Positions 40,663 through 58,958 are shown, counted from the first letter of the stretch. The stretch is DNA of 64,000 nucleotides from an uncultured Lentisphaeraceae bacterium (GCA_964482645.1 CAYZYQ010000001.1:31271-95270); one strand, 5' to 3'. Notes: generated by a model not told the origin, from the sequence alone. A program made the numbers and translations.

Positions 40663-42882
40663 ATGGCGGGCGGGGCGGTGAAAACGGATGCGCTTGAGAC
40701 GGTCGACGGAACCGTCAAGAGCGTTGTTTTTCGTAACGACGATACGGGGTTCACCGTCCTCCACGTGGTGACGGAGGAGGCGCGGTTTCGTTTGGGCGCA
40801 CGGGAGACGACGGTGCTGGGTACGTGCGCCGCCGTCTGGGAAGGTGAGGAACTCCACGCCGAGGGTGTTTGGGTGCAGGATCCCGTACGTGGGCGGCAGT
40901 TCAAAGCGAAGACGATTGCCTGCATACCGCCGAAATCGACGGAGGGGATTCGCCGTTATCTCGCCAGTGGATTGATTAAGGGCATCGGCCCCGTGTTGGC
41001 GAACCGCATTGTCGATACGTTTGGCGCGGACACGTTGGATGTCCTCGACCACCACTCGGGACGCCTCTCCGAAGTCAACAAGGTGGGGCCGCGCAAGATT
41101 GAGCAGATTCGGAAGTCCTGGCGTGACGCGCGGGGGATGCGCGAAGTGATGATTTTCACGCAGACCTACGGCATCTCGGTGGCGAAAACGACGAAGATTT
41201 ATCGGAAGTACGGACCTGATTCCATTGCCATCATCAAGGCCGATCCCTATCGTCTCTGTCGGGACATCTGGGGAATCGGTTTCGCAACGGCGGATCGCAT
41301 CGCCACGAGTGTCGGTCTGCCCATGGATTCACCCCTCCGTGCCCGCGCGGCAATTCTCCACACGTTGCGCGTCGAGGCCGAAGAGGCCGGGCATTGCTGG
41401 ACGTCCGAACCCGATCTGCTCCTGCACGCGCAGGAACTCGTCGGCATCTCCGTGGAAATCCTCTCCGCCGCCCTTGCGGTGGAGGTTGCCGAACGGCGCG
41501 TTGTCCGTGAAGACGACCGTCTCTATCTGTACGAACTCTATGCGGCCGAAAAGAGCGTGGCGGCGAGGATACGTCGTCTGCTCGCGACGCGCCCGGCTTT
41601 CGCGCCCATCGATCCCGACAAGGCGATTCCCTGGTGGGAAGGGCGGACGGGGTTCACGCTCGCGCCGGCGCAGATGCGGGCCGTGCGGACGACGTTGCGG
41701 TCGAAAGTCGCGATTGTCACGGGCGGTCCGGGCGTCGGCAAGACCACGATTATTCGGGCGCTTGTGGATATCTATCGCGCGCGCGGCGGCGTTCATGCGA
41801 TCAAGACGCTTTTGGCCGCGCCGACGGGCCGCGCCGCAAAGCGAATGTCGGAATCGACGGGCGCGGCGGCCCAGACGCTCCACCGACTGCTCAAATACAA
41901 TCCGCAGACGAATGAGTTTACGTTCAACGCGGAACGTCCGTTGCCGGGTGACGTGTTCATCTTCGACGAGATGTCGATGGTCGACATTCGCTTGATGCGT
42001 GATCTCATGGTCGCGTTGCCGGACGAAGCCACGCTCATTCTCGTGGGCGACACCGACCAGTTGCCGTCCGTCGGCCCCGGCAACGTTCTGCGCGACTTGA
42101 TTCGCAGTGGGGCGATTGCGACGTCGCAGTTGACGGAGATTTTTCGTCAGGACAGTTCGGGGTTGATTGTCCGCAACGCCCACCATGTCAACGCGGGCGA
42201 GGGGTTGGAGACGCGGAGCGGCGAGAGCGATTTCTATTTCGTCCCGCAGGAAGACCCGGAGAAAGCGCTTGCCGCCGCGCTCGATCTTATGACGGTACGT
42301 ATTCCGCGCCATTTCCATCTTGAGCCGTTGCAGGACGTGCAGGTACTCACGCCGATGCGGCGCAATTTGCTGGGGGCGGAAAACTTGAACACCGTCATTC
42401 AGCAACGATTGAACGGCACAGGACCGTCCATTCCGCGTGGTGGTACCGTGTTCCGTGCGGGCGATCGCGTGATGCAGTTGCGCAACAACTACGACAAGGA
42501 TGTCTACAACGGTGACGTTGGATTCGTGCAGAGCGTCGATTCGGGCAATCGGTCGCTCATCGTCCTCTTCGACGGGCGGCCTGTGGAATACGGCAGTGCG
42601 GACCTTGATGAGCTGACATTGGCCTACGCGACGACGATCCACAAGTCGCAGGGCAGCGAATATCCCGCCGTCATCGTCATTCTGCATCGCCAGCACTACA
42701 TGATGCTGCAACGCAATTTGCTCTACACCGCGATTACACGCGGCAAGAAGCTCGTCCTCGTTATCGGGTCGGGTTGGGCCGTCAAGAAAGCCATCGAGAC
42801 GAACACCGTCCGCGAACGGCGTACGTCCCTTGCCGACCGTTGTGCGGTCACACCGCCGGGCGGGCTTCCTGCGGAATCATGA
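40663..42882 (+). CDS. recD2: RecD2-like SF1B ATP-dependent DNA helicase
   Basis: N-terminal OB/HhH region (GIGPVLANRIV), Walker A GGPGVGKTT, VFIFDEMSMVD, C-terminal 2B/SH3 and motif VI (ATTIHKSQGSEYPAVI); 739 aa; last about 40 nt form repeat copy 1. Confidence 0.85.
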   Translation: MAGGAVKTDALETVDGTVKSVVFRNDDTGFTVLHVVTEEARFRLGARETTVLGTCAAVWEGEELHAEGVWVQDPVRGRQFKAKTIACIPPKSTEGIRRYLASGLIKGIGPVLANRIVDTFGADTLDVLDHHSGRLSEVNKVGPRKIEQIRKSWRDARGMREVMIFTQTYGISVAKTTKIYRKYGPDSIAIIKADPYRLCRDIWGIGFATADRIATSVGLPMDSPLRARAAILHTLRVEAEEAGHCWTSEPDLLLHAQELVGISVEILSAALAVEVAERRVVREDDRLYLYELYAAEKSVAARIRRLLATRPAFAPIDPDKAIPWWEGRTGFTLAPAQMRAVRTTLRSKVAIVTGGPGVGKTTIIRALVDIYRARGGVHAIKTLLAAPTGRAAKRMSESTGAAAQTLHRLLKYNPQTNEFTFNAERPLPGDVFIFDEMSMVDIRLMRDLMVALPDEATLILVGDTDQLPSVGPGNVLRDLIRSGAIATSQLTEIFRQDSSGLIVRNAHHVNAGEGLETRSGESDFYFVPQEDPEKALAAALDLMTVRIPRHFHLEPLQDVQVLTPMRRNLLGAENLNTVIQQRLNGTGPSIPRGGTVFRAGDRVMQLRNNYDKDVYNGDVGFVQSVDSGNRSLIVLFDGRPVEYGSADLDELTLAYATTIHKSQGSEYPAVIVILHRQHYMMLQRNLLYTAITRGKKLVLVIGSGWAVKKAIETNTVRERRTSLADRCAVTPPGGLPAES

Positions 42883-42890
42883 ACGCGAGA
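42859..42890. repeat. direct repeat copy 1 (core GGGCGGGCTTCCTGCGGAATCATGAACGCGAG) at recD2 3' end
   Basis: 32-nt core identical to 54352-54383 and with 1 mismatch to 57799-57830; flanks partially similar. Confidence 0.8.
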
Positions 42891-42926
42891 TGTCGATGTC
42901 CCGCGTGTAGTGTGATCCGGAACCAA

Positions 42927-43322
42927 CTATCGCGAACTCAATGACTCCGGTAACCAGATGTCTTCCCAGAAGAACGTCGGAAAGAAGTCGATTGTTTCGC
43001 TTGAATGCGAAACCGAGTTTCCCCAGATGCCGAGCGTGAAGCAGTCGGCAACCCCGTCGACAATGCGCACGGCGCACATGACGGCGCCGGGGACAATGCC
43101 GAAGACGCCTCCCAAAAAAGCGCCTGGCTCGGCGGCGGATTCATATCCCCTGCCGCCATAGTACGATATGTCCCTGACGATTTCGCCAGGACTTGTGACG
43201 ACGTTCACGAGTCCGCGGCCGACGCCGGTGGGCGGCGGCCATCCAAATTCATCCCCGTCCTCGCTGGCGGCAAGGCACGCCAGCGTCGTGCAGGCGCATA
43301 TCAGCATGCAAAGCTTTCTCAT
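42927..43322 (-). CDS. small secreted/lipoprotein, possibly exosortase-associated TIGR04073-like
   Basis: Signal peptide with LAC lipobox; GRGLVNVVTSPGEIVRDI segment resembles the conserved core of TIGR04073-family small proteins; last gene of the operon. Confidence 0.45.
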   Translation of the reverse strand: MRKLCMLICACTTLACLAASEDGDEFGWPPPTGVGRGLVNVVTSPGEIVRDISYYGGRGYESAAEPGAFLGGVFGIVPGAVMCAVRIVDGVADCFTLGIWGNSVSHSSETIDFFPTFFWEDIWLPESLSSR

Positions 43323-43337
43323 CTCATGTTTCTCCTG

Positions 43338-44165
43338 TTAGGCAAACTCGACCCGGGCCTTTCCAAGGCATTTGCCCTCGGTGGTACGAATCAGCGCCGT
43401 CTTGACCTTCGTGACTGTCATGGTGTTGTCCAGGGGGTGGGCGCCTAGGCCGTAAACAATGTGGAGGTCGGAATTGATTGGATCTCCAACGAGATCCCAA
43501 GTCACTTCGCAGCCTGCCGTCCGCCCGTCAAGCAGTTTTTTGAATTGCCGCCGAATGTCTGTCAGTTTCGCCTCGTCGTCGCGGAACAATGTGTAGAGTT
43601 CGACGTCAAACGCCTTGAAGCGGTTGGCGAACGCAATGTTGTTGTTCCTTGCAGAACTGACGGCTCCGATGAAAAGAGACACGATTCTCGTCGCGTCAAG
43701 GTTGCCACCCAGTTCCTTCCATATCGGCAGAACCTCAAGATGCAGGTCTTCGGGGATGAACGACGGCATCGGTTCGTTTTCGATTCTATAGCCCTTTCCT
43801 CGAAGCGCAGCGCATTCTATTGCCGTCTTCTTCAACTCGTTCTCAAGTTCGGCGATGCGCTCCCTGAGCCGATCCGCCTCTGAAGGCCTCGGCGGCTTCG
43901 CGTCGCGCTCTGCGAGTGAATGGTGTGAAATCCACTCCTGCCGGTTCCAGATTGCGCAGAGCTTTTGGAGACCGTCGGGCATGACTGCGCCTGGATGCTC
44001 TGAAAGGGTACGGGCGATGTCGGAGTCGGAGAGTCGCTTGTTGACGAAGCGCACCGCGAAGTCCTTGCCGATTTTTTCTTCAAGGGCGTCGGCGACGACG
44101 CACACCTGCCCGTCGTCGATCAGCCCTGTTTCGACAATGCGTGAAAGTACAGTGGTCAGGTTCAT
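43338..44165 (-). CDS. hypothetical protein (central coiled-coil)
   Basis: 275-aa ORF with lower-GC codon usage consistent with neighbours; 4-nt overlap with upstream gene; no recognisable motif. Confidence 0.5.
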   Translation of the reverse strand: MNLTTVLSRIVETGLIDDGQVCVVADALEEKIGKDFAVRFVNKRLSDSDIARTLSEHPGAVMPDGLQKLCAIWNRQEWISHHSLAERDAKPPRPSEADRLRERIAELENELKKTAIECAALRGKGYRIENEPMPSFIPEDLHLEVLPIWKELGGNLDATRIVSLFIGAVSSARNNNIAFANRFKAFDVELYTLFRDDEAKLTDIRRQFKKLLDGRTAGCEVTWDLVGDPINSDLHIVYGLGAHPLDNTMTVTKVKTALIRTTEGKCLGKARVEFA

Positions 44166-45286
44166 TCCGCATCAACCCCCGCATGAGACAGACATTTCGG
44201 TTCACCGTTTTTCGGCAGGCACATGACATACGCTGAACGGGCGTAGGTGATTCTTCTCGCGTTTTCGTTGCCCTCATGGATTTCCTTGTCGAAGTCATCG
44301 CCTTTTTTCGGCCAGCAAACCGAGATCGTGCAGTCGTCGCGCTTGCCGGCCATTTTGCTGTTCAGGTATCTTTCCACGCGTCTGCGGCATTCCTCCAATG
44401 TGTCTCCGCTGCCCATGGCCTTGGCGAAAGCATTGTCGAATGCCCTGAACCGTTCGACGAAGACATCCCTGTCAAGGGATCCCGTCAGAAGCCACATGAA
44501 GGAGTAGGCGCATTGAAGCCTGCGGCGTGAATCCTCGGAGTCGTCCGCATCCTCCCGATAGCCGAAGAGGTCGCACACATCCTTCGGCATTGCCTTTTCG
44601 ATTTCCAAACGCACTTTTTCAAGTTCGTCCTCGCACCCGGCCCTCACCTGCTCTATTTCCTCATTCTTCTCTTTGAGAGCCGATTCGTACTTCTGCCGAA
44701 TTTCCTCGATTTCGGCCTTATGCTCTGCCTCCATGGCGTTCTTTTCGGCTTCGCAGTTGCCCTGCTCCGTGGAAACTGTCTGCTCCATCGCCACCGCAAT
44801 GTCCATCTTGCGCTTTTCTTCCAGGCGGCATCTTTCATCGTCAAACGCCTTGCGCTCCGCCTCAAGCGTTTTCTTGGCCTCACACGCTTCCTCAAAGTCC
44901 TTCCGCGCCGATTCTTCAAGGCGCCTCTTGTCGCACTTCAACGCTTCGACCTCTTTATTCAGCGCTTCGACCTCTTCATTCAGATCGGCATTCTCCATGC
45001 GGTATCTTATTGTGTCGTCCAGAAGGAGGGAATAGGTCTTTTTATGCCGTTCAAGCTCCGTTTCAAGTTCGCGTTTCTTCTCATCGTTCAGTCTGTCGAC
45101 CTGTTCGTATCGGGCCTTGATTGCGTCCTTGATTGCATTCAGGCTGACGTTCAGGCTGGCGAGAACCTTGTTCGCGACTTTGTCGCATATGTTTTCGATC
45201 AGAATCTCGTCCGAAGAAGGTGGCTGGGAGGCCGTGGATGGAATCTCGGCGGCTTCGCTTTTGCTGGAAGTGTTTTCATCGGTCAT
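44162..45286 (-). CDS. coiled-coil protein, Glu/Lys-rich
   Basis: About 250 aa of heptad-like E/K/L-rich sequence (ELETELERHKK..., LNEEVEALNKEVEALK...) followed by globular Cys-containing C-terminal domain; 20-nt gap to upstream gene. Confidence 0.55.
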   Translation of the reverse strand: MTDENTSSKSEAAEIPSTASQPPSSDEILIENICDKVANKVLASLNVSLNAIKDAIKARYEQVDRLNDEKKRELETELERHKKTYSLLLDDTIRYRMENADLNEEVEALNKEVEALKCDKRRLEESARKDFEEACEAKKTLEAERKAFDDERCRLEEKRKMDIAVAMEQTVSTEQGNCEAEKNAMEAEHKAEIEEIRQKYESALKEKNEEIEQVRAGCEDELEKVRLEIEKAMPKDVCDLFGYREDADDSEDSRRRLQCAYSFMWLLTGSLDRDVFVERFRAFDNAFAKAMGSGDTLEECRRRVERYLNSKMAGKRDDCTISVCWPKKGDDFDKEIHEGNENARRITYARSAYVMCLPKNGEPKCLSHAGVDAE

Positions 45287-45306
45287 GTTCCGTCTCCTCT
45301 TTTTCT

Positions 45307-47691
45307 TCAGGCTATTTCAACGATGCGGTCCATCATGAACTCGCCGTCCATTGTGCAGACGCGGCACTCGACGTCTTCGGGATGCAGTTCCGTGGCGTCG
45401 CCTCTGAACGTGCCGGTTGCGGACACGACTCGCAGGGCGTTGTTCAGCGGATCGCTTTCAAGTCTCACCGAGACTCCGTCGCCGATTCCGCCATGTTTTT
45501 CGAGCGCTTCCGGTTTTATGCGGAGTTCGTACGACAGGATGGCTGTTTTCCCATATGGCGTCTTGCGCGCGAAAAGACGTCGCGGCGACGTCATCGGGAT
45601 GTCCTTCTGCAGTTCCCCGTCTCCGAATATCGGGCGCGTGAACGCGACGTGCTGCCCGTCGGGAACGATGCCCCACTTGAAGTCCGTGTTCACGACGTTG
45701 TTCGTGAACGACAGGTTCACGGATGCTTCGTTGCGCAGCGCATACAGCGCTCCGCCAAGCGCGGTCGAGATCTTCGAGTCGGTGATGCTCTTCGCGCCAT
45801 TGAAGAACTTGCCGCACCAGTCGCTGACGCGGTAGTCCTTCATGCTCCGGATTGCGGACGAGGGCAGGGCGATGCGTCTCTTGAACACGTTCTGCACTGC
45901 GGTGAACTCCATCGTCTTTCCGGAGAGGACGAGCATGTCGACGTCGTACGCGGCAATCAGATTCGCGAAGGAATGCGCGATGCTCCGAAATGTCTTCTCC
46001 GCGGTTGCACGGTAGGCGGAGACAATCTCCTGCGTAATGGCAATCTCGATTTCAAGGTCCTTGACTTTCTCAACGTCATCGATTTTCAGTTTTGCAATGC
46101 GGCACCAATCGGTGGCGTCGTCGTTCGAGAACTTGTGCCGGAAGACAGACAGGTCGTCATCGCGGATGTCGTCATTCGGATATCGCCGCAGAAGTTCGTC
46201 CAGTTTGATGGCGAGCGAAAGGGCAAGGTCGAACCAGAACGTCTTTGTCAGCGATCTGACGTGCGATCGCATTTCCGACGAATGGTAGTTCGCGCGAAGG
46301 TCTGCGTCCTTCGTTCCGAATTCATGCTCCAATTTCTGCGCAACGGCCTTGAACCCTGCCTTGGCAACGCAGTTCTCGATGAACGCGAAGATGAACGCAT
46401 CTCCGGCCGTGTTCACGCCATCGCGGCAGAAGAGGTCTATCGTGGCGCTGTACGGATCGACGCCGGCCGTTTCCTCCGATGCGGACACGGCGGATATCGA
46501 GAGATCGGACGTTCCGCCTCCGACGTCGATGACGGCAATCCTGGCCTCGCGTCCAATCGGAGACCTGCGGCCTATGGACTGGAGCCAGAAGAACGCACTC
46601 GGGTTTCTGCGGATTTCGTTGTAGGCGAAGAGAGAGAGCACGGACGTCGCCTCGTCGATGTCCGAGGTCAGCTCCACTTCCGTCTCGGGAAAATTCCGCA
46701 GATAGGCTCGCAGTCCATTCTGCAGCCGTTCGCGGTACAGTTCCAGCTCGCGCGGCAGAAGCGTGGAAGGATATGTGACGTGAATGCGGGAGATTCTGCG
46801 GCAGCGCGAGTCGCATGATTTTTTCTTGAACTCCGCCGAAGAGACGTAGTAGCACCCCTGTTCGTACAGTTCCGCCAGCATGGCGCCGAGCATGGCGGCG
46901 GGTGGAAGACGGTTCATGTCGATTCCGCAGTCCATTCCAAGTTCTGCCGCGATGATTCCGTTCAGATGTTCCACTTTCGGCTGCTCGGCGTCGACAGGCA
47001 TTCTTGAGGCGACCCATTCGCGTGACGAAGGATCGGCGTCCCAGAAATACCTTTTGGGGCTTGAAAGCGTATAGCGTCCCGCTCCTTCGCGACCTCTGAA
47101 CTGATAGTTGTTCCATTCCGCAAAGCGTCCGAGTCTGACAAACGACAGCCGTCCCTCGTTGTCGCAGAATTCACCGTCGGGGCGTGAATCCGCGTTCGTG
47201 AGCGACACCAGGCTTTTGAACGCGCCCTTCAGGGGACTCTCGCTTTTCCGCTGCTTGCACGCGATCGGCAATTCGTATACCGACGGGGCGCTTTCTCCAA
47301 GACCGTCGACGAGAAGAGCCACCGTGCGCGTGTTGCCAAGATCAATTGAGAGCATGCAGTCGACGACGTTGGACGGCGTCGCGATCTCATAACCCTCCCA
47401 GTCCTCGAAGTCGCCTAACTTTCTCCTGGCGTTTGGGTCTTTGCGGTCGCCGGGACGCGGCAGGGAAGGGCGCGCGTCGACCGTGAGGTACAGTATGTAC
47501 CTGGTCGTTTCCGTATCTCCGCCTACGGGTCTGCTCTTTTCCGTGGATGTCACGTACAGCAGACGATGGGGCACGACCCCTCCGTCCGATTCGGCTGCGA
47601 ACGCGCCCTGTTCCAGATTGTTAAACACGCTTTCCTCTAGATCAAGTTTCAGCGTGCAGACTTCGCCTTTGTAGATTGCAGATAATGCCAT
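45307..47691 (-). CDS. Hsp70/actin-fold ATPase-like protein (about 795 aa)
   Basis: Phosphate-1-like MLSIDLGNTRTVALLVDG and phosphate-2-like IAVIDVGGGTSDLSI motifs in the spacing expected for an Hsp70-type nucleotide-binding domain; start ambiguous (ATG 47691, or 47793/47838 overlapping upstream gene). Confidence 0.65.
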   Translation of the reverse strand: MALSAIYKGEVCTLKLDLEESVFNNLEQGAFAAESDGGVVPHRLLYVTSTEKSRPVGGDTETTRYILYLTVDARPSLPRPGDRKDPNARRKLGDFEDWEGYEIATPSNVVDCMLSIDLGNTRTVALLVDGLGESAPSVYELPIACKQRKSESPLKGAFKSLVSLTNADSRPDGEFCDNEGRLSFVRLGRFAEWNNYQFRGREGAGRYTLSSPKRYFWDADPSSREWVASRMPVDAEQPKVEHLNGIIAAELGMDCGIDMNRLPPAAMLGAMLAELYEQGCYYVSSAEFKKKSCDSRCRRISRIHVTYPSTLLPRELELYRERLQNGLRAYLRNFPETEVELTSDIDEATSVLSLFAYNEIRRNPSAFFWLQSIGRRSPIGREARIAVIDVGGGTSDLSISAVSASEETAGVDPYSATIDLFCRDGVNTAGDAFIFAFIENCVAKAGFKAVAQKLEHEFGTKDADLRANYHSSEMRSHVRSLTKTFWFDLALSLAIKLDELLRRYPNDDIRDDDLSVFRHKFSNDDATDWCRIAKLKIDDVEKVKDLEIEIAITQEIVSAYRATAEKTFRSIAHSFANLIAAYDVDMLVLSGKTMEFTAVQNVFKRRIALPSSAIRSMKDYRVSDWCGKFFNGAKSITDSKISTALGGALYALRNEASVNLSFTNNVVNTDFKWGIVPDGQHVAFTRPIFGDGELQKDIPMTSPRRLFARKTPYGKTAILSYELRIKPEALEKHGGIGDGVSVRLESDPLNNALRVVSATGTFRGDATELHPEDVECRVCTMDGEFMMDRIVEIA

Positions 47692-47716
47692 GAGGGTTTC
47701 CAGAGAATGTCCGTGT

Positions 47717-48193: not shown

Positions 48194-48206
48194 TTCCCAT
48201 CTCCAA

Positions 48207-51164
48207 TCAGATTCCGTGGATATCCAGCGTGGACGTTATCGTCGCCTTTGCCGTATTGAGCTCCGCGATTTCCGCGTCCGTTATTGAAAAACGGAGGGCG
48301 TTGAAGATGTCTGTTTCGCAATTCAGCACGCTCGTGAACCTCGCCTTTGGATAGAACGATACGAAACCCTTCGGACTGCGGATCCACGCGAGAATCTTTC
48401 CCGTCCAGTCGACGGAAATAAAGTCGAACTGGCACGTGCCATCGAGATTGTCCACCACGCCCAGTTCGTGAAGCCTTGCGCCCGGGAGTCCAAACTTGTC
48501 TCCGTCCTTTGTGAACGTGAACTCGACTTTGGGCTTGTGCAGCAGGACGGTGGCGTCCGGATTCGCGGTGTTTTTCTTGTACGCCTTCCAGGACTCGTTG
48601 AGTCTGCACTCGATCGATTCCATGATGACGCCGAAACGGATCATTTCGGACAGCGTCATGGTCGTTCGCGACGACGGCGCCATGAGACCGGCCCTTATCC
48701 ACGCCTGTTTTACGGCGGGCATGGACGAATAGAGCCTTGAGAGCGTGTCGTGCGCCGTGAAGTCGATGCCGAGAGTCCCCATCCAGAGCCCCTGCACGTG
48801 TATAGGCGTCGCGTCCTTCTTCCTGCCCTTGAACAGCGGCGACGCGGCGGTTTCCTCGTCCTTCCACATGTTCGGGTTCATGATGCCCGATGAATGGTTT
48901 ACGGACAGGAAGGAATCTGCCGAGTTTGCCGTGTTCGGCATGGTCTTCAGACCGAGGACGTCGCAGACGTCGCCATTCGTCATCTTGAAGCCAGGCGGCG
49001 TTCCGCCCTGCTTGATTACGTAGTGGTAGTGGAACGTCTGGGAGTCCGGCGCCGCGAATTCCGGCGCATTCGTCCTGCAGCCGATTGAGTTCTTTGCCAC
49101 GGAGAAGTCCTGAAGCGTTGCACCCGAAAGAGGGTTGGCGCCCGGCTCCAGCTGGTCTGCAAGTTCGATGAACTTGTTGAAGACGCTTTCCTCCGCAAGC
49201 TCCAGGATGGCGTCCGCCGTATGGTCGTAATTGAGGAGTAGTTCGGCGGAGTCGTCGCGTGCGTTCATGTCCTTCACGGTCTGCACGTTCAGTCTCTTGT
49301 CGTTGACGCACTTGCGGTACACGATCGACATCACGATGCGGAATGGATCGAATGCGAGCTGTTTGCGCTTCTCGTCCGGGAGCGGGGCAAGCGGTTCCAC
49401 GAGAAGACCGTCTATGATGTGCGGATTCGTTCCGCCGCGCAGCTCCTTGCACTGTCTGTGCAGTTTCGCCTTCAGTTCGTCGCACTCTTTCCTGAAGTCG
49501 GAGAGTTCGCGCGAAAAGGCGCCTGTGTCGATGAACGACGTGCGCGCGCAGCGGCAGGCGCAGATGTAGAAGCCGAGCAGTTCGCGGAAGCGCTTGTCAA
49601 ACGCATCCACCACTTCCCTGAAGACTTCGTCCTCTTTCGAGAGGCCGAACACCCAGTCGCGTACGACGCGATTCTGCTTCCGCGTCGAGGCCAGCGCGAT
49701 CGCATTGTCCAGCGACTTGACCATCTCGGCCGCATACTGGGAGACGTTTGCCTTAAGCCCCTGGATCTTGTCATGAAGTTCTTTGTATCCCTGGGCGATG
49801 AGTTCCACGTTGACGTCGCCGTTCCAGTCTGCATACTTCGAACAGGCGAGGAGGAGCATGAGTTCCTTGGCGGGGACGACCCTGTACTCCGGAACGCCGT
49901 CTTTCACCGCGTCAAGCAGTTGCCTGAAGGAGTTCCTGAATTCTCCAAGGGACCTCTCGTTGATGGCGCCGCGTTCTTCCGCCTGGAGCAGCGCTTTCAG
50001 CGGAATGCACTGCGCGGGATCGACGCCGGCAAGGGCTTTCCTGTATTCGGGCAGCTGGGCGTCGATGAACACGCTTTTGACGTTCTCCAGGATTGCGGGG
50101 GCAGCTCCGCTTCCGTTCAGAAATCCCGTCCGCCCGTCCTTGCCGTCAAGGACGGCGATGAGGCTCTTGTAGAACCAGTTCTTCAGCGAGACCATCCGTC
50201 CGCTTTTCATCACGAACATGTTGAATGCGGAAAAACACGGATCCTCCTTGTCCACGTGGTACGCGGGGCCTGACTGCCCCGCGATCAGCCTGTCCACCCA
50301 GCGCGGATGGAATTCCTCCACGTGGAGGTACGTGGCGGCGAAGAGCTGTTCGGCCAGGAGCGACGTCACAAGCGGCCGGCGTCCATGCGGCGTGGGAAGC
50401 ACGTAGAGGTTGCCCATGGGCAGGGATGAACCCGAAATGCCGCGGTCTGCAAGCACGTGTCCGTCGGGCTTCGCGCCGGTGAACAGCGGAAACGCTTGGT
50501 CTTCCTTCTGCACCCACACGGGGACTTTGAAGCCGGGGCGTTCCGATTCCAGCCGTCGCCGCCAGCTTGCCGTCTGGAGGTCCTTGAACATCGAGATCAT
50601 GTTCAGCGCGATTGGATAGTTGCCCTCTCCGGGAATCGCCTCCGGCATCAGGAGAAAGCCCAGCACCACCACGTTCTTGAAGTCGGGGTTTGCGTTTCTC
50701 TTCCGCAGAATCTGCAGGTCGAGGAAATCGCATATGTTCAGGAACAGGCCTCCGGACGTTCCACCGAACGCAGAGCCCACCACGACGATCTGGTCGTCCG
50801 GTTCTAGCGGGAATTCGTTCTCGATTTCAGCCCAGGTCTTTCTGATGAACTCGGCCGCCTTGCCGGAGACAGAACGGTCGCCGCCGACACCGCCCGCAGG
50901 AACGGTCTTGGCCGTCCATGACGGCTGGAAGCTCTTTTCCACGTCTCCGTCGTCGTCCGATATCTTCAGCACGTAGCCCTTCACGCGCGACGTGTGCAGG
51001 CGCGTCCCAAGGGCGTTGAAGGCGTCGATCTCCGACGGCATCGAGTCGATCGCCACGTAGCGGTCGTCGAACCTTCCAAACAGATTCTCCTCGCACAGGC
51101 GTTTGATGAGCGCCATTACGCCTTTCAACGACTCGCTTCCGGATGCAATGAAAATTCTCTTCAT
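48207..51164 (-). CDS. tubulin/FtsZ-like GTPase domain protein with about 700-aa helical C-terminal extension
   Basis: N-terminus RIFIASGSESLKGVMALIKRL...VAIDSMPSEIDAF resembles the FtsZ/tubulin N-terminal strand-loop-helix and DxxAL; VVVGSAFGGTSGGLFLNICDFL resembles the T4 GGGTGSG loop; 985 aa. Confidence 0.6.
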   Translation of the reverse strand: MKRIFIASGSESLKGVMALIKRLCEENLFGRFDDRYVAIDSMPSEIDAFNALGTRLHTSRVKGYVLKISDDDGDVEKSFQPSWTAKTVPAGGVGGDRSVSGKAAEFIRKTWAEIENEFPLEPDDQIVVVGSAFGGTSGGLFLNICDFLDLQILRKRNANPDFKNVVVLGFLLMPEAIPGEGNYPIALNMISMFKDLQTASWRRRLESERPGFKVPVWVQKEDQAFPLFTGAKPDGHVLADRGISGSSLPMGNLYVLPTPHGRRPLVTSLLAEQLFAATYLHVEEFHPRWVDRLIAGQSGPAYHVDKEDPCFSAFNMFVMKSGRMVSLKNWFYKSLIAVLDGKDGRTGFLNGSGAAPAILENVKSVFIDAQLPEYRKALAGVDPAQCIPLKALLQAEERGAINERSLGEFRNSFRQLLDAVKDGVPEYRVVPAKELMLLLACSKYADWNGDVNVELIAQGYKELHDKIQGLKANVSQYAAEMVKSLDNAIALASTRKQNRVVRDWVFGLSKEDEVFREVVDAFDKRFRELLGFYICACRCARTSFIDTGAFSRELSDFRKECDELKAKLHRQCKELRGGTNPHIIDGLLVEPLAPLPDEKRKQLAFDPFRIVMSIVYRKCVNDKRLNVQTVKDMNARDDSAELLLNYDHTADAILELAEESVFNKFIELADQLEPGANPLSGATLQDFSVAKNSIGCRTNAPEFAAPDSQTFHYHYVIKQGGTPPGFKMTNGDVCDVLGLKTMPNTANSADSFLSVNHSSGIMNPNMWKDEETAASPLFKGRKKDATPIHVQGLWMGTLGIDFTAHDTLSRLYSSMPAVKQAWIRAGLMAPSSRTTMTLSEMIRFGVIMESIECRLNESWKAYKKNTANPDATVLLHKPKVEFTFTKDGDKFGLPGARLHELGVVDNLDGTCQFDFISVDWTGKILAWIRSPKGFVSFYPKARFTSVLNCETDIFNALRFSITDAEIAELNTAKATITSTLDIHGI

Positions 51165-51189
51165 GGTGTTTCCTTTCTGCGTCTGCGCC

Positions 51190-51783
51190 CTACAGTCTTG
51201 TCGTCTGCCGCTTCATCTTGAAGCCCGGCCAGAAGAACCATGCCAGCACGACCATGTCCAGAAGTGTCGGAATGATTGGGTGTATGTAGCCGTAGTGCCT
51301 GTAGAAGAATGCGGTCGTCCTGTACGCCGGCCGCTTGCTTGCGTCGGCGTGGTCTTTCGCGTCGCCCTTGTTCTGCGCGGCGCGACTGTTCTGGCACTTC
51401 TCGCTGATGGCCTTGATGTTCCAGAAGTCGTTCTTCGCGTTCGCGTCATATCCCGGCATCGACGCCCTGTAGTCCGTCGCGAACGACGTGATCCCGCTTA
51501 TTTCGGTCACCAGCACGGAGTGCGCGACGAAATAGATGCACGCCATGGCGACGAGGCTGGCCCAGAAGCACTTGCACCATGCCTCCCCGGCCGTGCGCCA
51601 GGCGCCTTTTGCCTCTTGATTGAATCGGTTTCGGAAAAAGCGCACAAGGCCGAAGACCAGGCCGACGGGAAGGGCGATGAAGAAAAAGGCGTCCCAGGCG
51701 AGAAGCGCCAGGCTCGTCGGCAGAAGGCTTTTCAGCATCGTCAGCCATCCTTCGACGGACAGCGAATTCAGAGTTTCGATCAT
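51190..51783 (-). CDS. integral membrane protein (about 4 TM)
   Basis: Hydrophobic helices LLPTSLALLAWDAFFFIALPVGLVFGLV, CFWASLVAMACIYFVAHSVLV, IIPTLLDMVVLAWFFW; 14-nt gap to neighbours. Confidence 0.55.
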   Translation of the reverse strand: MIETLNSLSVEGWLTMLKSLLPTSLALLAWDAFFFIALPVGLVFGLVRFFRNRFNQEAKGAWRTAGEAWCKCFWASLVAMACIYFVAHSVLVTEISGITSFATDYRASMPGYDANAKNDFWNIKAISEKCQNSRAAQNKGDAKDHADASKRPAYRTTAFFYRHYGYIHPIIPTLLDMVVLAWFFWPGFKMKRQTTRL

Positions 51784-51797
51784 TTCCGTTCTCCTTG

Positions 51798-54176
51798 TTA
51801 GACTGCCCGTCGGAACTCGATTTGTCCGACAGGCTCCATTGCCACTTTGTTTTCAAACAGCAGGTAGATCCCCTCGTCGAAGACGACCGTGTTCTCCCCG
51901 ACGGTCTTCTTGTCCGTGCCTGCAATGGGCATCAGTTGGACGTCCTTGCCGGGGGCGCGCAGTTCAAATTCGACCGCCTCCGTCTCCCCCTTGCGGCAGA
52001 TGACGACGAGGTCGACCGGACAGCCGCATTTCCCGTCCAGTCGCACGGCGCGGTTGAGCCTGACGTCAAGCACGACTTGCGTATCGGACTCCTTGTTTGA
52101 ACGGTAGAGGATCTGCGCGGCAGTTCTGCCGCGAACGAGCTTGGCGACAACCACGCCCGTACCTGCGACAAGAGCCGGCAGCAGCACGAACGGAAGAACG
52201 TTGCCTCCGCCATTCGGCGTTCCGCCTTCGACCGGGATGGGCACTCGCTTCCACTCTTCGAGTTCGGCCTTGGCCGTTGCCAGCTCGTTGTCGTTTACGG
52301 CCGCCTCCACTTTTTTCCGTAGCGATTCAAGTTCGGCGCGGTTCTGGATGACGTCGTCGCCATTTGCCGAATTGTCCAGGCGCCAGACTCGCCTGTTCAG
52401 GAGTTCATCTTTCTTTCCTTGAAGTGCGGCCTCCTTGACGCGCCGTTTTTCTTCATCGTCCTTAAACTTTTCGGCCTCTTGATCGGCTTCGACCTGTTTA
52501 GGTGTCTTTGTGGCTGACTTCGTGGCGGGTTTCCATACATTGAATGCGTTCACCGCCTCGTCGAGGGAATCTTTGTCTTTTGCGGCTTTTATCCTCTGCA
52601 GAATCGTAGAGAGGTCTTCGTGATTGAAGATTTGATCCTCGGAATATACGGCCAGTTGTCTCTCCACAATACTAATGGCATTCGTACGCAATTCTTCAAA
52701 CCTGCGGCGGGCTATTTCCGCCTCTATCTCCTTGTTCCTCCGCGCCATGCTTTCCTCCAGTGTAGAAAGGCGTCCCGCCAGTTTTTCAAGCTCGGAGATG
52801 AACAAGGCGATGTCCTTCGTCGACAGCCTTGGGTCGTTGTCGATGAAGCCCGTGCACTTTGCAAGTTGATTGGAGATGTCGTTACAGTCGGAAGCAAAGG
52901 CGCTTCTGTCGCTCGCCGGCATTTTGGAAAGGCGTTCTACGGTGGAGTGCACTTTGATGGCGATGCCCTTCTTCTTTTCCTTGAGTTCGCGCAGGCATTC
53001 AAGGCGCGTGTTCTCTTCGGTCACGGATGCGACGAGTTCTGCGATGGAATCCAGTTTTACCTTGATATACGGCTTGTCAGGTGCAGCGGCAAGGTCGGCG
53101 AGCTGTTTCACGGCGTCGCCTTTCTGCCCTTCCTTCCGCGCCTTTGCGAGGGCGTTTGTGACATCGGAGAAGAGACGTTCTCTGTCGCGAAGACATCCGT
53201 AGTCGAACAGACTCGAATCCCATGTGCGCGTATACGTGATTCCGGCGGGCGAGACAATTGACGCCACCAGTTCATTCTGTCCGAGAACGGGCGTCAGGTT
53301 CGTCGAGTCTTCGTCAAGCGAAATAGACTGCCCATTGTGCCTTATGGTCGTCGTCCATGTTTCCCTTCTTGGCAGTCGGCTTGTTCGCCTTACGGCGATA
53401 TGCGTGTCTTCTGGATTGCAGACAAGCGCCTCCAGACCGGCTTTCTCCGTTTCCGAAAGCGCGTAGTAATGGTCGACGATGGCGTTGGCGACGTCGTTGG
53501 CGTTCGTGTCCAGGGCGACGCGAAGGAAATCTCGCCATTTTTCATGCGACCAGTATGGCTTGAAGATGCCCGCGTTCACTGATTCTGCTGGCGCGTGAAG
53601 CATGAAAAACATGATGTCGTGTTCTTCGTCGAGATGAAACGCGCCATGTCGCGTAGTCAGGTCCGGGTCGTTGGAAATGATGCAGACGACGACATTTCGG
53701 GCAGATTTTTCGTTGTCGAGCACCTGCTTCACGAGGATGTCCCGTCCCCACTCCTCGTCCTCTTTCCCGAATGCGCCGAAATCGGAACGGCTGGCTTTCC
53801 TTGAAAGCGAAAATGGCATGACGATGCCGGGTTTCAGCAGATATGCCGTCCCCGTGTTCACTTCGACGTAGTTTCCGAAGCCGCGCCGGCGCAGCCCTGC
53901 TTCAATCGGATTGTCACGATCGGCCAGAAGCGACCGCAATGCGTTGATGGCACGGACATAGGCGTGGGACGTTCCGTAGTCCATGTTCGCGTCCTTGTTG
54001 CGCTTGTGTCCGTCCACGTAGAAATGCACACTGACATCCCGTCGCCCGTCCAGCGACATGTTTCTCTCTATGGGCGGTACCGCCATGTCGTTCAATGCGG
54101 CCGCGCAAGTCCATGCCGCAAGCAAAATCGCGACTATGCCATATGATTTAAACATAAATTCTCTTCCTTCGCACAA
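51798..54176 (-). CDS. secreted/membrane-anchored protein: signal peptide, about 300-aa ectodomain (possible degenerate vWA), long coiled-coil, single TM, about 110-aa C-terminal domain
   Basis: Signal peptide MFKSYGIVAILLAAWTCAAA; ectodomain with DVSVHFYVDG...NVVVCIISNDPDL; about 250 aa Lys/Glu-rich coiled-coil; TM VLPFVLLPALVAGTGVVVAKLV; first gene of operon. Confidence 0.6.
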   Translation of the reverse strand: MCEGREFMFKSYGIVAILLAAWTCAAALNDMAVPPIERNMSLDGRRDVSVHFYVDGHKRNKDANMDYGTSHAYVRAINALRSLLADRDNPIEAGLRRRGFGNYVEVNTGTAYLLKPGIVMPFSLSRKASRSDFGAFGKEDEEWGRDILVKQVLDNEKSARNVVVCIISNDPDLTTRHGAFHLDEEHDIMFFMLHAPAESVNAGIFKPYWSHEKWRDFLRVALDTNANDVANAIVDHYYALSETEKAGLEALVCNPEDTHIAVRRTSRLPRRETWTTTIRHNGQSISLDEDSTNLTPVLGQNELVASIVSPAGITYTRTWDSSLFDYGCLRDRERLFSDVTNALAKARKEGQKGDAVKQLADLAAAPDKPYIKVKLDSIAELVASVTEENTRLECLRELKEKKKGIAIKVHSTVERLSKMPASDRSAFASDCNDISNQLAKCTGFIDNDPRLSTKDIALFISELEKLAGRLSTLEESMARRNKEIEAEIARRRFEELRTNAISIVERQLAVYSEDQIFNHEDLSTILQRIKAAKDKDSLDEAVNAFNVWKPATKSATKTPKQVEADQEAEKFKDDEEKRRVKEAALQGKKDELLNRRVWRLDNSANGDDVIQNRAELESLRKKVEAAVNDNELATAKAELEEWKRVPIPVEGGTPNGGGNVLPFVLLPALVAGTGVVVAKLVRGRTAAQILYRSNKESDTQVVLDVRLNRAVRLDGKCGCPVDLVVICRKGETEAVEFELRAPGKDVQLMPIAGTDKKTVGENTVVFDEGIYLLFENKVAMEPVGQIEFRRAV

Positions 54177-54212
54177 GATGTCGTTGAATGAAAACGCGCA
54201 TATTTTACAATA

Positions 54213-54231
54213 CCCCCCCCCCCCCCCCCCC
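54213..54231. repeat. homopolymeric C19 (G19 on coding strand) tract 37-55 nt upstream of operon start codon
   Basis: 19 consecutive C residues read directly; sits between island operon start (54176) and repeat copy 2. Confidence 0.9.
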
Positions 54232-54338
54232 TGTCAACTGCAAGTTTTGGAATTGTCATTTGTCAGAGTGAATGTACCTATGGCAGTCGCATCTATTCTG
54301 GCAAGCGACCTACAAATGTACGTGTAAAGGCGTTGTGC

Positions 54339-54383
54339 ACTCACGCCACGGGGCGGGCTTCCTGCGGAATCATGAACGCGAGG
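54339..54383. repeat. direct repeat copy 2
   Basis: CACTCACGCCACGGGGCGGGCTTCCTGCGGAATCATGAACGCGAG; 41/41 identical to 57786-57826. Confidence 0.85.
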
Positions 54384-54418
54384 TGACGGGCGACGAATTG
54401 ACTGCGACGAGCTTTTGG

Positions 54419-55684
54419 TTACGCTTTCGTTGAGAACAACTTGTCCAGCTGCCCTCTGACGTCGAGGCCGCCTTCGCTCTTGTACACCGTGGCGTAGAGG
54501 CACGAACCGCCTGACTTCGCCGCCCAGAGGCGGCCGATGGCGTCCTTTTCCAGCGTGTCCCTGGCGTTGCGCAACTGTTCGCCCTTGTATTCGACCGCGA
54601 AGAGGCGTCCGTCGTCAAGGACGCCCACGAAGTCCGGGAAGAACCGCGTGTGCGCCAGCGGCAGCCAGAACGACTCGTCGCACGTGTCGAGATTGCGCAG
54701 CCACGTCCTGACTTTCGGATGGGCGTCAATCAGCTTTGCGCACTCGAACTCTTCGCCCTCGCCGTATTTCAGCTGCCCGTCGAACGCCGGGATGCGGTGC
54801 GTTCCAAGAAAGTGCTTGTTGAAGCGGTAGTTGCCACGGTAAACCTCAAGCATCGTCTGATTGCGATAGAGCGCGTCGTCCAACGCAAAAGCCTTGTCCA
54901 CGTTCAGTTCAACACGATGGACGCTGTCGAAGAACACCGCTTGATAGGCCTTCTTCCGGACGATTCTCGCGGCCTCGGCAATATGGCCGTCGAGACAGTT
55001 TCGCAGTTTGTAGCGGAAGCAGTAGAGCTGTGCCGGCGTGAATCCCCTGGCCGTCACAAGATGATTGACGACCCCGGCGATCCAGCCGCGCATCACCTCC
55101 GGCGGAATCGCATTGTGCCGCGTCAGGGCGGCGAGTTCATTGACCACGTCTCCCGGCGCAAGATCCGTCTTGACCTCTTGCAGGAACGTCATCTGTTCGT
55201 GCGCGAACTGCTGTTTGATTTCATTTCCGTTCAGTTCGAGAACAAACGTTTCGCCCTGTTCCCTTATCTCGAATTCGCCGTCCGGCAGCACGGCGTGGTT
55301 CGCCTCCAGTTCCCTGCCCAGATCCTCGCCCGCCAGTTCCTCCGCCTCTTCGCCGTCGAAGCAGAGTTCGCCCTGGACGTCTGCGCAGAGTTTTGGAAAC
55401 GTCATCTTGACGGAGTTCGCGGGAACGGCCTCGACGGCCTCTGACTTCTTCTCTGCGACCTTCTTCAGGAATTGGGCGGCGAGTGCGGTCTGGCCGTTTT
55501 CATGCAGGAGGTTCGCGATTTTGGATGCGGATGCCTCGGAGATGTCCGCCCTTACCGCAATCGTCCCCGAACCGTCGGCGTTCGCTGTCACCTCGACGTC
55601 TTCGGGCATTTCGGCGGCAATGGCCTCGTACACTGGAGTTTTGGAGTTCGGGAGACGCGAGGGTGTTCCGCAATTCTCCCCCAA
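54419..55684 (-). CDS. PD-(D/E)xK restriction-endonuclease-like domain protein (possibly truncated)
   Basis: C-terminal FFPDFVGVLDDGRLFAVEYKGEQL shows D...E-x-K nuclease core similar to type III restriction Res C-terminal domains; no helicase motifs in N-terminal half. Confidence 0.5.
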   Translation of the reverse strand: MGENCGTPSRLPNSKTPVYEAIAAEMPEDVEVTANADGSGTIAVRADISEASASKIANLLHENGQTALAAQFLKKVAEKKSEAVEAVPANSVKMTFPKLCADVQGELCFDGEEAEELAGEDLGRELEANHAVLPDGEFEIREQGETFVLELNGNEIKQQFAHEQMTFLQEVKTDLAPGDVVNELAALTRHNAIPPEVMRGWIAGVVNHLVTARGFTPAQLYCFRYKLRNCLDGHIAEAARIVRKKAYQAVFFDSVHRVELNVDKAFALDDALYRNQTMLEVYRGNYRFNKHFLGTHRIPAFDGQLKYGEGEEFECAKLIDAHPKVRTWLRNLDTCDESFWLPLAHTRFFPDFVGVLDDGRLFAVEYKGEQLRNARDTLEKDAIGRLWAAKSGGSCLYATVYKSEGGLDVRGQLDKLFSTKA

Positions 55685-55931
55685 GCCTCCGAAACTCCAC
55701 GCGGCGAAAGCAACACCTCCCCTACGGCATCTGCTCGCCGGCGATTTCTTCGAGGGTGTGTATCGGACGCGCTCCGCGTTCCCGCAGCCGAATTTTCACT
55801 TGGCGCAAAGCGAAAACAGCGACGTCGCCCTTTGTTTACAGGGGTTCGGCGATTCTCTTGCCCGAAAAATTGGGGAATCTCCAAAGGTGATGATAGTACG
55901 CTGCACCAGTCACTCCCATAATATTGCCGAA

Positions 55932-56591
55932 TTACAAAAGCTCCCAAGTGAAAATAACGGAGTCAGAAACGTCAAGGTCGTCAGGATTGATGTCTGGTAC
56001 AGAACAAGCAGACGCCTCTTGCCAACAACCCAGAACTTCAATTCTAGTCCTTCTATACACATTTAACTCATGCCACGAATAGTTAATGTTTATAATGTCG
56101 CCAAGCTTCTTGCCAACACCACGACTGAGTCCTTCGGCAATCTTACGGGCGTTCTCGGAGGCCTTAGCGAACAATTCAGCTTGTACAAACGAAGCGTCTT
56201 TCACCGTAAATCGAACTTCAAACTCAGGATTGACACCGGACTTTACAATGCCCCCCAGAATTGCACCTATCATTTCGCGGCTGAAATCAAAACCAAACTT
56301 GAGTTTTTGGTGAATCTTGTATCCAGCAAACACACGCTTCTTTGTGCGTTCACCATTCGCATCATCAATCCACTCCCATTCAGTATCGACATCAAAATCC
56401 GTGGTTCGCAAATCCTCGGCATCGACATTGACTTCTTTCAATGCATTTTGCAGAAATTGAATCTTGTGTGCCGCATCGGACATACAATTCGAATAATCAT
56501 GGCCGCGTGTCACTATGTCGATAAGAATATTGACATAATCCGGCTTTACTTTCACATTTGCCGCACTGCGGACAGTTATTTCTTTTCTCAT
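55932..56591 (-). CDS. SIMPL (DUF541) domain protein
   Basis: N-terminus MRKEITVRSAANVKVKPDYVNILIDIVTRG matches the SIMPL-domain start; low-GC codon usage unlike host. Confidence 0.55.
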   Translation of the reverse strand: MRKEITVRSAANVKVKPDYVNILIDIVTRGHDYSNCMSDAAHKIQFLQNALKEVNVDAEDLRTTDFDVDTEWEWIDDANGERTKKRVFAGYKIHQKLKFGFDFSREMIGAILGGIVKSGVNPEFEVRFTVKDASFVQAELFAKASENARKIAEGLSRGVGKKLGDIININYSWHELNVYRRTRIEVLGCWQEASACSVPDINPDDLDVSDSVIFTWELL

Positions 56592-57785
56592 TGCCTCTAC
56601 TCCTTTTTTAGTTAAACAATGTCACTACCATGCAATAGTGATGGTGTGATGTGAGTAAAAAAGTCGTTGCCTTCAGGTCGCTTTCCCGTGTACCATACAC
56701 GGTGTCATGAAAGAACCCTGAAAGCAACGACGAAGAGAATGATACCAATTCTGGCGCAGATAGTCCAACATACTTGCCAGGATACAAAATCGAGGAACTC
56801 GCGGCCGAAGAGAAAATCAAGGCCAGGGAGTTTTCCTGCTCCGCGCAGGTGTACCTGTTGATGCTCGGCCAGCTTGCGCATGTCTTCTCTTTGAATGAAC
56901 TCGTCGACCCCTCGACGATATTCTCCGGGGAGCTCCGCCACATACGCGGCATCGAGGCCGTGAAGCTCACGACGTTCTCCCACGCCAACAGGACGCGGGC
57001 GAATGGCAGATATGGGCGGCGATGCTGACGCATCTTGTCCTGTACTACATCAAATGGAAGAACAAGGTGGTTTCCTCGTATACGCGGTTCGCGGCGATGA
57101 TCAAGAACACCATCTGGTTGAAGCGCCCTCTTGAGGCGGGGATCAATTTATATTGCAGAACACCTGGCCAAAGCAGCCCTCCGCCAGACCGCAGCATGCC
57201 GTATTTGCCGGGGTTTGAGCGGCTTGCCATTGGATAGCACCCGGCGACAATTGCAACGACAACGGCGTCTATCGCATGACATAAACACACTCACATTGAA
57301 AATCGCCTTGCGAAACTGTCGCTTTGGGCCGAAAAACCACCTAATACGCTATCCGTTCGCATAGTTTTGGAACCCTGTTGTATGGTATTGGAGATGCGAG
57401 GTCGTTCCACAATTCCCTCGAACTCCGGGACTCCAGAACTTCCGCAACGAAAGCAACAAACTTCCGCGCCCGCATGATGCAACCCGGCGCGACAGGGACG
57501 TCGCGCCCTACTGGATGGGCAGACGCCCCGCCATGCGGTAGCCGAACAGACGTTCCGCCATTCGGCAGGGCGTGCAGATGTTTCGCCATTCGGTAGGGCG
57601 GGGCGTCCCGCCCCGCCGTTGACGTGCGCGACGGGGAACTTGCCGACGATGCGGCCGGCCTTGACGAAGAATCTTCAGCTCATGGTCGTCGCGCTGGAAT
57701 GTTTCGTCCGCAAAAAAAAAGGGGATCCTCCAAAACATGTGCATCTTCCCAAAGCCAATGCGCCCGAAATCCGGAATAGCTGTAC

Positions 57786-57830
57786 ACTCACGCCACGGGG
57801 CGGGCTTCCTGCGGAATCATGAACGCAAGG
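57786..57830. repeat. direct repeat copy 3 (forms the 3' end of antiporter gene)
   Basis: CACTCACGCCACGGGGCGGGCTTCCTGCGGAATCATGAACGCAAG. Confidence 0.85.
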
Positions 57831-58807: not shown

Positions 58808-58870
58808 GTTTGTACCTTCTCCTTCGTTTGGTTTTCTTGTGAAAGGGGCGGCTCGTCCGAATGACAAGCT

Positions 58871-58958
58871 TGGCGGAGAGAGAGGGATTCGAACCCCCGA
58901 AGCCTTGCGGCTCGCCGGTTTTCAAGACCGGTGCATTCAACCACTCTGCCATCTCTCC
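58871..58958 (-). tRNA. tRNA-Ser (anticodon TGA)
   Basis: Reverse complement GGAGAGATGGCAGAGTGGTTGAATGCACCGGTCTTGAAAACCGGCGAGCCGCAAGGCTTCGGGGGTTCGAATCCCTCTCTCTCCGCCA folds as cloverleaf: 7-bp acceptor, anticodon loop CTTGAAA, long variable arm, TTCGAAT T-loop, encoded CCA. Confidence 0.85.

Follow-up and report, generated by a model that had tools for sequence, protein, structure and literature searches.

The locus described here lies in a 64,000-nucleotide (nt) stretch of DNA from an uncultured Lentisphaeraceae bacterium (GCA_964482645.1 CAYZYQ010000001.1:31271-95270; hereafter the window), between the helicase gene recD2 and a convergent gene for an antiporter of the Na+/Ca2+ exchanger family (CaCA). 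Three direct copies of a short repeat, which is made of the overlapping 3' ends of these two genes, bound two blocks of DNA, block 1 next to recD2 and block 2 next to CaCA (Table 1). The reading we favour, and to which we give about an even chance of being right, is that the locus arose by tandem accretion of integrase-less islands resembling cis-mobilizable elements (CIMEs), through a site-specific recombinase that has been lost or has yet to be recognised.

The core of the repeat, 32 nt long, is GGGCGGGCTTCCTGCGGAATCATGAACGCGAG. It is exact in copies 1 and 2 and has a single mismatch, G to A at 57827, in copy 3, so that the stretch identical in all three copies is 42858-42886; a 23-nt form of the core is GGGCGGGCTTCCTGCGGAATCAT. 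None of 100 dinucleotide-preserving shuffles matched the 32-nt core. Repeat-finding on the window returned 58-nt units beginning at 42838, 54331 and 57778, the second and third being 88% and 76% identical to the first, and the full repeat is about 55 nt long, the extension beyond the core running leftwards. Copies 2 and 3 have an exact run of 42 nt in common and a 47-nt stretch with one mismatch, and all three copies have near-equal boundaries on both sides. Searched against all 64 kb, an nhmmer profile built from the copies recovered only these three, each with E about 1e-19, and the best match after them had an E-value of 0.69. On an independent 44-kb contig from ENA (ERZ27271042 k141_304338; L001 plus L008) the three copies follow one another as they do in the window, and copies 2 and 3 are present in ERZ27271029/39/43. 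As several ENA assemblies reproduce the copies, the three-copy layout is no assembly artefact. The arrangement appears to be fixed in the sampled population. An earlier note on this DNA, made from the sequence alone, had described three direct copies, which the sequence search, the shuffles and the independent contig confirm; its core positions were all one base too high, it gave the run common to copies 2 and 3 as 41 nt, and its repeat length of about 45 bp fell short of the actual extent.

Table 1. Features of the recD2/CaCA locus, numbered from the first nucleotide of the window (aa, amino acids; GC, G+C content).
Feature	Position	Strand	Remarks
recD2 helicase gene	40663-42882	+	739 aa; Pfam HHH_RecD2, AAA_19/30, SH3_13, UvrD_C_2, OB_YrrC
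Repeat copy 1	42838-42892		Core exact (42858-42889); recD2 tail on plus strand, displaced CaCA tail of PAV type on minus strand
Block 1	42890-54350		11.5 kb; GC 57.0%
Left arm of block 1	42890-42924		35 nt, copy 1 to operon; no match in other fetched loci (BLAST)
Block 1 operon	42927-54155	-	Eight genes: g792, g197, 985-aa gene, g158, SrfB-like, g374, g275, g131
g792	within operon	-	785 aa as called; signal peptide and C-terminal transmembrane segment
g197	within operon	-	197-aa membrane protein
985-aa protein	within operon	-	Weak Tubulin_2 match
g158	within operon	-	158-aa protein
SrfB-like protein	within operon	-	794 aa; PF07520, E 5e-39
g374 and g275	within operon	-	Coiled-coil paralogues
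g131	within operon	-	131 aa; signal peptide
Operon promoter TTGACA-G19-TATTGT	54207-54237	-	Homopolymer 54213-54231
Right arm of block 1	54263-54330		Operon to copy 2; about 88 nt counted to exact core; no match in other fetched loci
Repeat copy 2	54331-54385		Exact core 54351-54382; orphan CaCA tail, PVA type, joined to neither gene
Block 2	54383-57797		3.4 kb; GC 54.6%
Truncated type III restriction enzyme gene	54419-55684	-	PADLOC REase_III, profile positions 505-895 of 898, E 9e-38
5' gene fragment	55721-55760	+	40 nt, 90% identity to start of gene 26053-27966
SIMPL/DUF541 gene, intact	55932-56591	-	Pfam PF04402, E 6e-28
IS4-type transposase N-terminus (DUF4372), weak fragment	56774-56911	+	Six-frame Pfam, E 0.0013, 19.3 bits, below cutoff of 25
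REP-like 28-nt tandem unit, three copies	57519-57600		Non-coding right end of block 2
Repeat copy 3	57778-57832		Core 57798-57829, one mismatch; live CaCA 3' end
CaCA antiporter gene	57788-58807	-	339 aa; Pfam Na_Ca_ex, E 2e-62
tRNA-Ser(TGA)	58871-58958	-	Directly upstream of CaCA; outside repeat

The repeat is coding sequence of both genes. On the plus strand, the last eight codons of recD2 and its TGA stop (42880-42882) lie within copy 1. On the minus strand, every copy holds the last 13 codons of CaCA and a stop codon, the encoded tail being LAFMIPQEARPAV in copy 1 and LAFMIPQEARPVA in copies 2 and 3, each up to its stop. Only copy 3, which covers the final codons of CaCA (stop codon 57788-57790), is joined to the CaCA gene, and copy 1 additionally carries the recD2 stop. 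These reading frames bear out the proposal that the repeat represents the common 3' ends of the convergent recD2 and antiporter genes. The tail alleles divide the copies in two ways, as copy 1 has the PAV type of the chromosome on the recD2 side, where the other two are of PVA type, and the polymorphic position is G in copies 1 and 2 and A in copy 3, adjoining CaCA. The exact CaCA protein is also present on ENA contigs.

When the left side of copy 1 was joined in silico to the right side of copy 3, recD2 was unchanged and a 339-aa CaCA ending in …QEARPAV was obtained, and the tails of the two genes overlapped by 35 nt. The extent of the repeat corresponds to this overlap and about 10 nt on either side. 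The natural C-termini in the 90% identity cluster of CaCA are …RPVA, …HPVA or …RPAV (the last in P0127 and P0131-P0133), and because RPAV occurs in natural alleles the rebuilt C-terminus is not hypothetical. The empty-site junction predicted in this way (left base of copy 1, core, right base of copy 3) is CGGGCGGGCTTCCTGCGGAATCATGAACGCA, and the junction predicted for a circle of block 1 (left base of copy 2, core, right base of copy 1) is GGGGCGGGCTTCCTGCGGAATCATGAACGCGAGA.

Under tandem accretion, the overlap of the recD2 and CaCA tails would serve as an attachment-like recombination site at which two DNA segments were stacked successively. Each segment would have arrived as a circle with its own copy of the ~55-nt site, and a single reciprocal crossover between the chromosomal copy and the circle, within the identical core and placed by us in the stretch common to all three copies (42858-42886), in a window no wider than 28 nt (42858-42885), could have integrated it (Campbell-type integration). 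The incoming copy would provide a substitute CaCA tail, ending in …RPVA and a stop for …RPAV and a stop, leaving both genes intact, and the displaced CaCA tails would have been left behind as copies 1 and 2. The 3.4-kb block proximal to CaCA would have been inserted earlier and have decayed since, and the 11.5-kb block proximal to recD2 would be a later insertion carrying a captured, intact eight-gene operon. Both blocks could be cis-mobilizable elements, the integrase having been lost or acting in trans from elsewhere in the genome. Circular intermediates, the position of the crossover, the order of events and the enzyme are what this model adds to the data.

A probable order of insertion can be read from the two blocks. 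Block 2 is probably the older insertion because it is decayed and because the CaCA-proximal 45 nt are common to a 93.6%-identical lineage, and block 1 is probably the younger one because it is intact and is located elsewhere in a 97.7%-identical sister lineage. The alleles fit a pattern of attL, hybrid and attR, with copy 1 as the chromosomal PAV side and copies 2 and 3 as imported PVA sequence. The orphan copy 2 is needed by neither gene, suggesting that recombination was aimed at the repeat itself, and a third copy is what would be expected from two rounds of Campbell-type integration. The earlier note's suggestion of two successive site-specific integrations is therefore upheld in part: the repeats with their coding content, the intact genes of a coherent in-silico empty site, the alternative cargo in other strains and the orphan copy all support it, but neither an integrase-bearing occupant nor an empty site was found, and the site-specificity is deduced.

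The alternative cargo was seen in loci where other sequences follow the same CaCA tail. In L074, where CaCA is 96% identical at the nucleotide level, a PAV-type tail is succeeded by what is left of a recD2 tail, 18 codons reading LADCCTVVTPPGGLPAES and a stop, and beyond this remnant lie a 224-aa gene, a Fic gene and a 114-aa gene. Further, different sequences are located downstream of CaCA in L081-L086. Strain-dependent cargo after the same tail identifies the site as a genuine insertion hotspot. In the sister lineage with 97.7% identity (L072, L073), the Logan contigs break off in a longer shared segment, exactly 30 nt after it begins. A k=31 graph has to branch at that point when there is more than one copy, so at least two copies of the repeat are present in each such sample. 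This implies the same architecture in the L072/L073 lineage with a longer duplicated segment, the segment being about 55 nt in the window and at least 62 nt, including the recD2 remnant, in the L074/L072 lineage.

The CaCA tail is also a place of sequence exchange. A sliding comparison of L075 (1640-2653) with L074 (268-1287) gave about 70% identity over the first 750 nt of CaCA and 97-100% over the last 270 nt and the 40 nt downstream. In L076-L079, CaCA is identical to that of the window apart from a patch of about 40 nt abutting the core (window 57830-57870). The L075 chimera and the L076-L079 patch indicate that the CaCA tail has been exchanged by homologous recombination, and this mosaicism speaks for homologous recombination or gene conversion being frequent there. 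A 70-nt identity between L074 and L075 was considered as a site-specific crossover in two species and was dropped, as the two sequences stay alike for 270 nt of CaCA. L075 also has, beyond the CaCA tail, an 11-nt direct repeat, GTTAATGAACA, that occurs twice about 270 nt apart (within ~2690-3100), followed by a stretch that by eye resembles a fragment of an IS630-type transposase, possibly a small insertion with a target duplication.

The absence of an integrase from both blocks, noticed earlier, was borne out by every search made. No integrase or recombinase family was found among the block proteins in Pfam, NCBIfam, PADLOC or PHROGs; a six-frame Pfam scan of 56560-57800 gave no decayed integrase, its only match being the weak IS4 piece (DUF4372), and no recombinase was found by Pfam among the longest non-overlapping open reading frames (ORFs) of at least 100 aa in the window or, from precomputed Pfam annotation, on the contigs within 10 kb on either side. 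The contigs with an exact recD2 gene or the neighbouring peptidyl-prolyl isomerase (PPIase) gene either run into block 1 or end within the repeat, and among the matches listed the Logan contigs that come to the site from either gene, 19 of 19, end inside it, at the 30th nucleotide of the sequence common to the copies. An empty-site allele, which the earlier note had proposed to look for in related genomes, was not found among the metagenome contigs examined for recD2, PPIase or CaCA. A CaCA search of the contigs of GTDB species representatives gave 56 loci (best 81% aa identity), none with recD2 nearby, and the synteny is therefore not conserved at genus level. The nearest relatives (L009-L012, L075) have two tandem CaCA paralogues, compared with one in the genome of the window.

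Several results weigh against tandem accretion by a site-specific enzyme. Exact-protein look-ups of recD2, PPIase and CaCA alleles gave no contig that joins recD2 directly to CaCA, and no integrase was seen at the recD2/CaCA site in the few strains examined. Downstream of CaCA in 37 related loci, 79 ORFs gave housekeeping Pfam families and no integrase among the first 25 of 52 families, which makes this weak evidence; the loci are from related species with different synteny. Searches with core fragments of 20-29 nt revealed no circular or extrachromosomal copy of the site: core pieces of 25 and 20 nt were absent from JGI metagenomes apart from chance 20-mers (six hits, in unrelated sequence), and pieces of 29 and 20 nt gave nothing in viral contigs. 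No trace of an element backbone is left in block 1, as one would have expected of an integrative element in decay, and the arms of blocks 1 and 2 have no similarity to each other outside the repeat. In sister lineages the block 1 operon adjoins LptFG or RecO without the repeat. Finally, active homologous recombination in the CaCA tail weakens the argument from the junctions for a site-specific enzyme.

This last point leads to the rival that survives best, namely that the same architecture was produced by RecA-dependent Campbell-type recombination, with about 55-75 nt of homology on circularised incoming DNA and with islands swapped between strains through CaCA/recD2 homology, no site-specific recombinase ever having been involved. 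The missing integrase, in the blocks and among the window ORFs, would then need no explanation, and the mosaic 3' region of CaCA, the variation of the duplicated segment between lineages and the unrelated arms of the two blocks are all in agreement with it. However, a perfect identity of 29-32 nt is about the least that RecA can recombine efficiently, and the boundaries of copies 2 and 3 almost coincide on either side, as would those of copies of one defined att segment. Recombination of this kind would also leave the first duplication, and the presence of the site on the incoming DNA, unexplained. We regard it as unlikely, though well worth keeping in mind.

Another possibility is that illegitimate insertions were filtered by selection, such that the 35-nt overlap had to be duplicated for an insertion to survive, and that a third copy came from unequal crossing-over followed by replacement of the content. 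The extent of the repeat, which is the overlap with about 10 nt per side, is what this would predict, and the cargo at the site is heterogeneous and devoid of recombinases. The occurrence of the operon elsewhere without flanking repeats can also be counted in its favour. Selection for intact recD2 and CaCA nevertheless accounts for one duplication of the overlap and not for a third copy between foreign blocks, as the orphan copy 2 is not required by it. Copies 2 and 3 bear the PVA allele, unlike copy 1, and so are no fresh duplications of resident sequence, and repeated independent insertions at one nucleotide are unlikely without targeting. This makes an explanation by selection quite improbable.

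The positions of the operon in other genomes invite a different view of block 1. The same eight genes adjoin LptF/G in L093, where g197, the 985-aa gene and the SrfB-like gene are about 98% identical at the nucleotide level; they adjoin RecO in L100 and L101, and in L094-L099 they lie between an SMR gene and Iso_dh, with 71-83% nucleotide identity. The homology always starts about 10-25 nt upstream of the -35 element TTGACA and extends as far as the last gene's stop codon, so that the homologous module in window coordinates is 42925/42927 to 54254/54262. No flanking direct repeats were found in the LptF/G, RecO and SMR/Iso_dh contexts, the module ends have no inverted terminal repeats and no shared inverted 8-mers, and no mobility genes, inverted repeats or target duplications are visible around the relocated operon in the compared loci. 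The operon (11.3 kb) could be a mobile cassette of a new kind, an exact promoter-to-stop unit that moves within one species without transposase, integrase, inverted repeats or target duplication, and the repeat of the recD2/CaCA overlap a docking site that captures cassettes by a recombinase-independent route or an unknown recombinase. We put this forward with considerable doubt.

It is scarcely credible that the repeat is a dispersed element like the repetitive extragenic palindromic (REP) sequences, or an artefact of assembly, and the blocks ordinary chromosome: REP-like short repeats do exist in block 2 (57519-57600), with further occurrences in other loci, but the repeat itself, for which the earlier note had named a REP-like dispersal as the refuting outcome, has its three copies in 64 kb at a single locus, codes in two genes, does not fold significantly (z-scores -0.6, +0.6 and -1.0), is absent in pieces from the JGI metagenomes (bar the chance 20-mers) and viral contigs, and is reproduced in its layout by several independent ENA assemblies.

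Block 1 is a single minus-strand operon of eight genes, the rest of its DNA amounting to no more than 35 nt on one side and 88 nt on the other, and it resembles a captured operon and not a decayed integrative element minus its integrase. Its predicted products include three with signal peptides or membrane segments, and the operon is probably envelope-associated. The promoter is kept even in the species with 71-83% nucleotide identity, and its G run measures 19 nt in the window, 22 in L008, 17 in L093, about 15 in L094-L097 and 9-10 in L100-L102, lengths that call for caution as long homopolymers are prone to sequencing error. This variation suggests that the promoter is phase-variable by slipped-strand changes of the G run. 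The protein families are rare, with 28 clusters among 5.8 billion proteins for g792, the first protein of the operon, and 41 relatives among 1.84 billion representatives for the 985-aa protein; neither of these two rare families, both of which were searched, matched plasmids, phages or the Protein Data Bank (PDB). The exposed g792 protein and the coiled-coil proteins diverge much faster (77-91% aa identity) than the other operon proteins (95-100%). By eye, the C-terminal domains of the g374/g275 pair look GrpE-like.

Block 2 is a mosaic of gene pieces. The restriction enzyme gene (Res) retains only its C-terminal half and has no Pfam match, and the 40-nt 5' gene fragment lies exactly at its truncation point; this fragment matches the twin-arginine signal region at window 27964-28003, with ACG in place of ATG. 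The SIMPL gene looks foreign because of its low G+C content at third codon positions (0.43, where its neighbours have 0.75-0.85). No intact parent of block 2 was found, the homologues of Res being few and fragmentary and the closest (L103, 81% aa) having an unrelated downstream context. The GC-rich REP-like stretch at about 57486-57618 recurs in L012, a contig of a related species (34-193 and 9670-9704). Gene content and a lower GC do set both blocks apart from the surrounding chromosome, as the earlier note had it, but the difference in GC is modest, the left flank having 62-64% and the right flank 60.8%.

On the other side of CaCA, the unit formed by tRNA-Ser(TGA) and CaCA (window 58811-59042; L081 6800-7035) is about 94% identical at the nucleotide level in a lineage with unrelated upstream neighbours, a resistance-nodulation-division (RND) efflux pump in L081 standing where the window has a 660-aa protein. 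Given these unrelated neighbours, the 1.3-kb tRNA-Ser(TGA)-CaCA unit is variable on both sides. Upstream of tRNA-Ser there is a palindrome centred on TTTATATAAA (59077-59112), with a near-alike hairpin at L100 1-35, which may be a dispersed terminator-like element.

If tandem accretion is true, the overlapping recD2/CaCA tails would be a new kind of protein-gene attachment site and would give a first handle on the building of genomic islands in Kiritimatiellia, an uncultured gut lineage from which, to our knowledge, mobile elements have not been described. In practice the gain is modest: the hotspot could help to type strains and to track down the missing recombinase. The searches made gave no evidence of current mobility at the locus. 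The stronger lead is the cargo, a rare eight-gene operon with a variable poly-G promoter that occupies different positions in near-identical genomes with exact boundaries.

Among known arrangements, integrase-free hotspots between core genes have variable cargo, no local recombinase and homologous exchange in the flanking genes. The present locus is like them in its strain-variable cargo between two conserved genes and in the homologous exchange in its flanks, and unlike them in the orphan copy 2, an internal direct copy of a flanking gene's end that points to Campbell-type integration. The integrase-less, Xer-dependent elements at dif known as IMEX are often in tandem, have target-site repeats and use the host recombinase. 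The blocks are likewise integrase-less and in tandem with target-site repeats at their ends, but inspection of the core showed no 28-bp dif-like site, XerC and XerD arms of the pattern ATAA-N6-TTATG being absent, and no GC-skew switch occurs at the locus, the cumulative GC skew rising on both sides. An integron cassette array was rejected, there being no significant attC-like fold and no integrase, and so was a DDE transposon, as there are no shared inverted 8-mers, the 55-nt direct repeat far exceeds a target-site duplication and only the weak IS4 fragment is present. An RNA explanation for the repeat from Rfam was likewise rejected.

Closer parallels are found in tandem islands that are delimited by repeats of a target gene's 3' end, as in the ssrA islands of Dehalococcoides and in the staphylococcal cassette chromosome mec (SCCmec) and pseudo-SCC elements at rlmH (PMC3146451). 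Some units of this type have no integration module and were suggested to be CIMEs, and their cargo varies between strains (PMC3146451). The recD2/CaCA locus has the same succession of several islands, the direct repeats of target-gene 3' ends and the strain-variable cargo, and differs in that the ssrA and SCCmec arrays have serine recombinases (DsiB, CcrAB) in at least some units and repeats of about 20 bp, compared with no recombinase and about 55 nt here. The CIMEs of Streptococcus, from the ICESt1/ICESt3 family (ICEs being integrative and conjugative elements), form tandem units with an internal att copy, in which attL and attR are kept and the genes for integration and transfer are absent (PMC5704250). 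The two blocks resemble them in being stacked, with an internal att-like copy, both ends kept, no genes for integration or transfer and a decayed older unit, in agreement with the published scheme in which elements decay to CIMEs and tandem accretion follows (PMC5704250). Unlike CIMEs, no integrase-bearing relative is known for this site, block 1 has no remnant of a backbone of an ICE or of an integrative and mobilizable element (IME), the gene fragments of block 2 derive from a restriction enzyme and an insertion sequence (IS) and not from an ICE, and the target consists of the overlapped tails of two protein genes in Kiritimatiellia. Like an integrated island, each block is flanked by direct repeats of the target-gene ends, but there is no integrase inside. 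The locus shows a familiar island pattern, in which islands devoid of an integrase are stacked where a target gene ends (3'), at a new site in a poorly known phylum; its chief peculiarity is that the larger block is an intact operon with other neighbours in sister strains.

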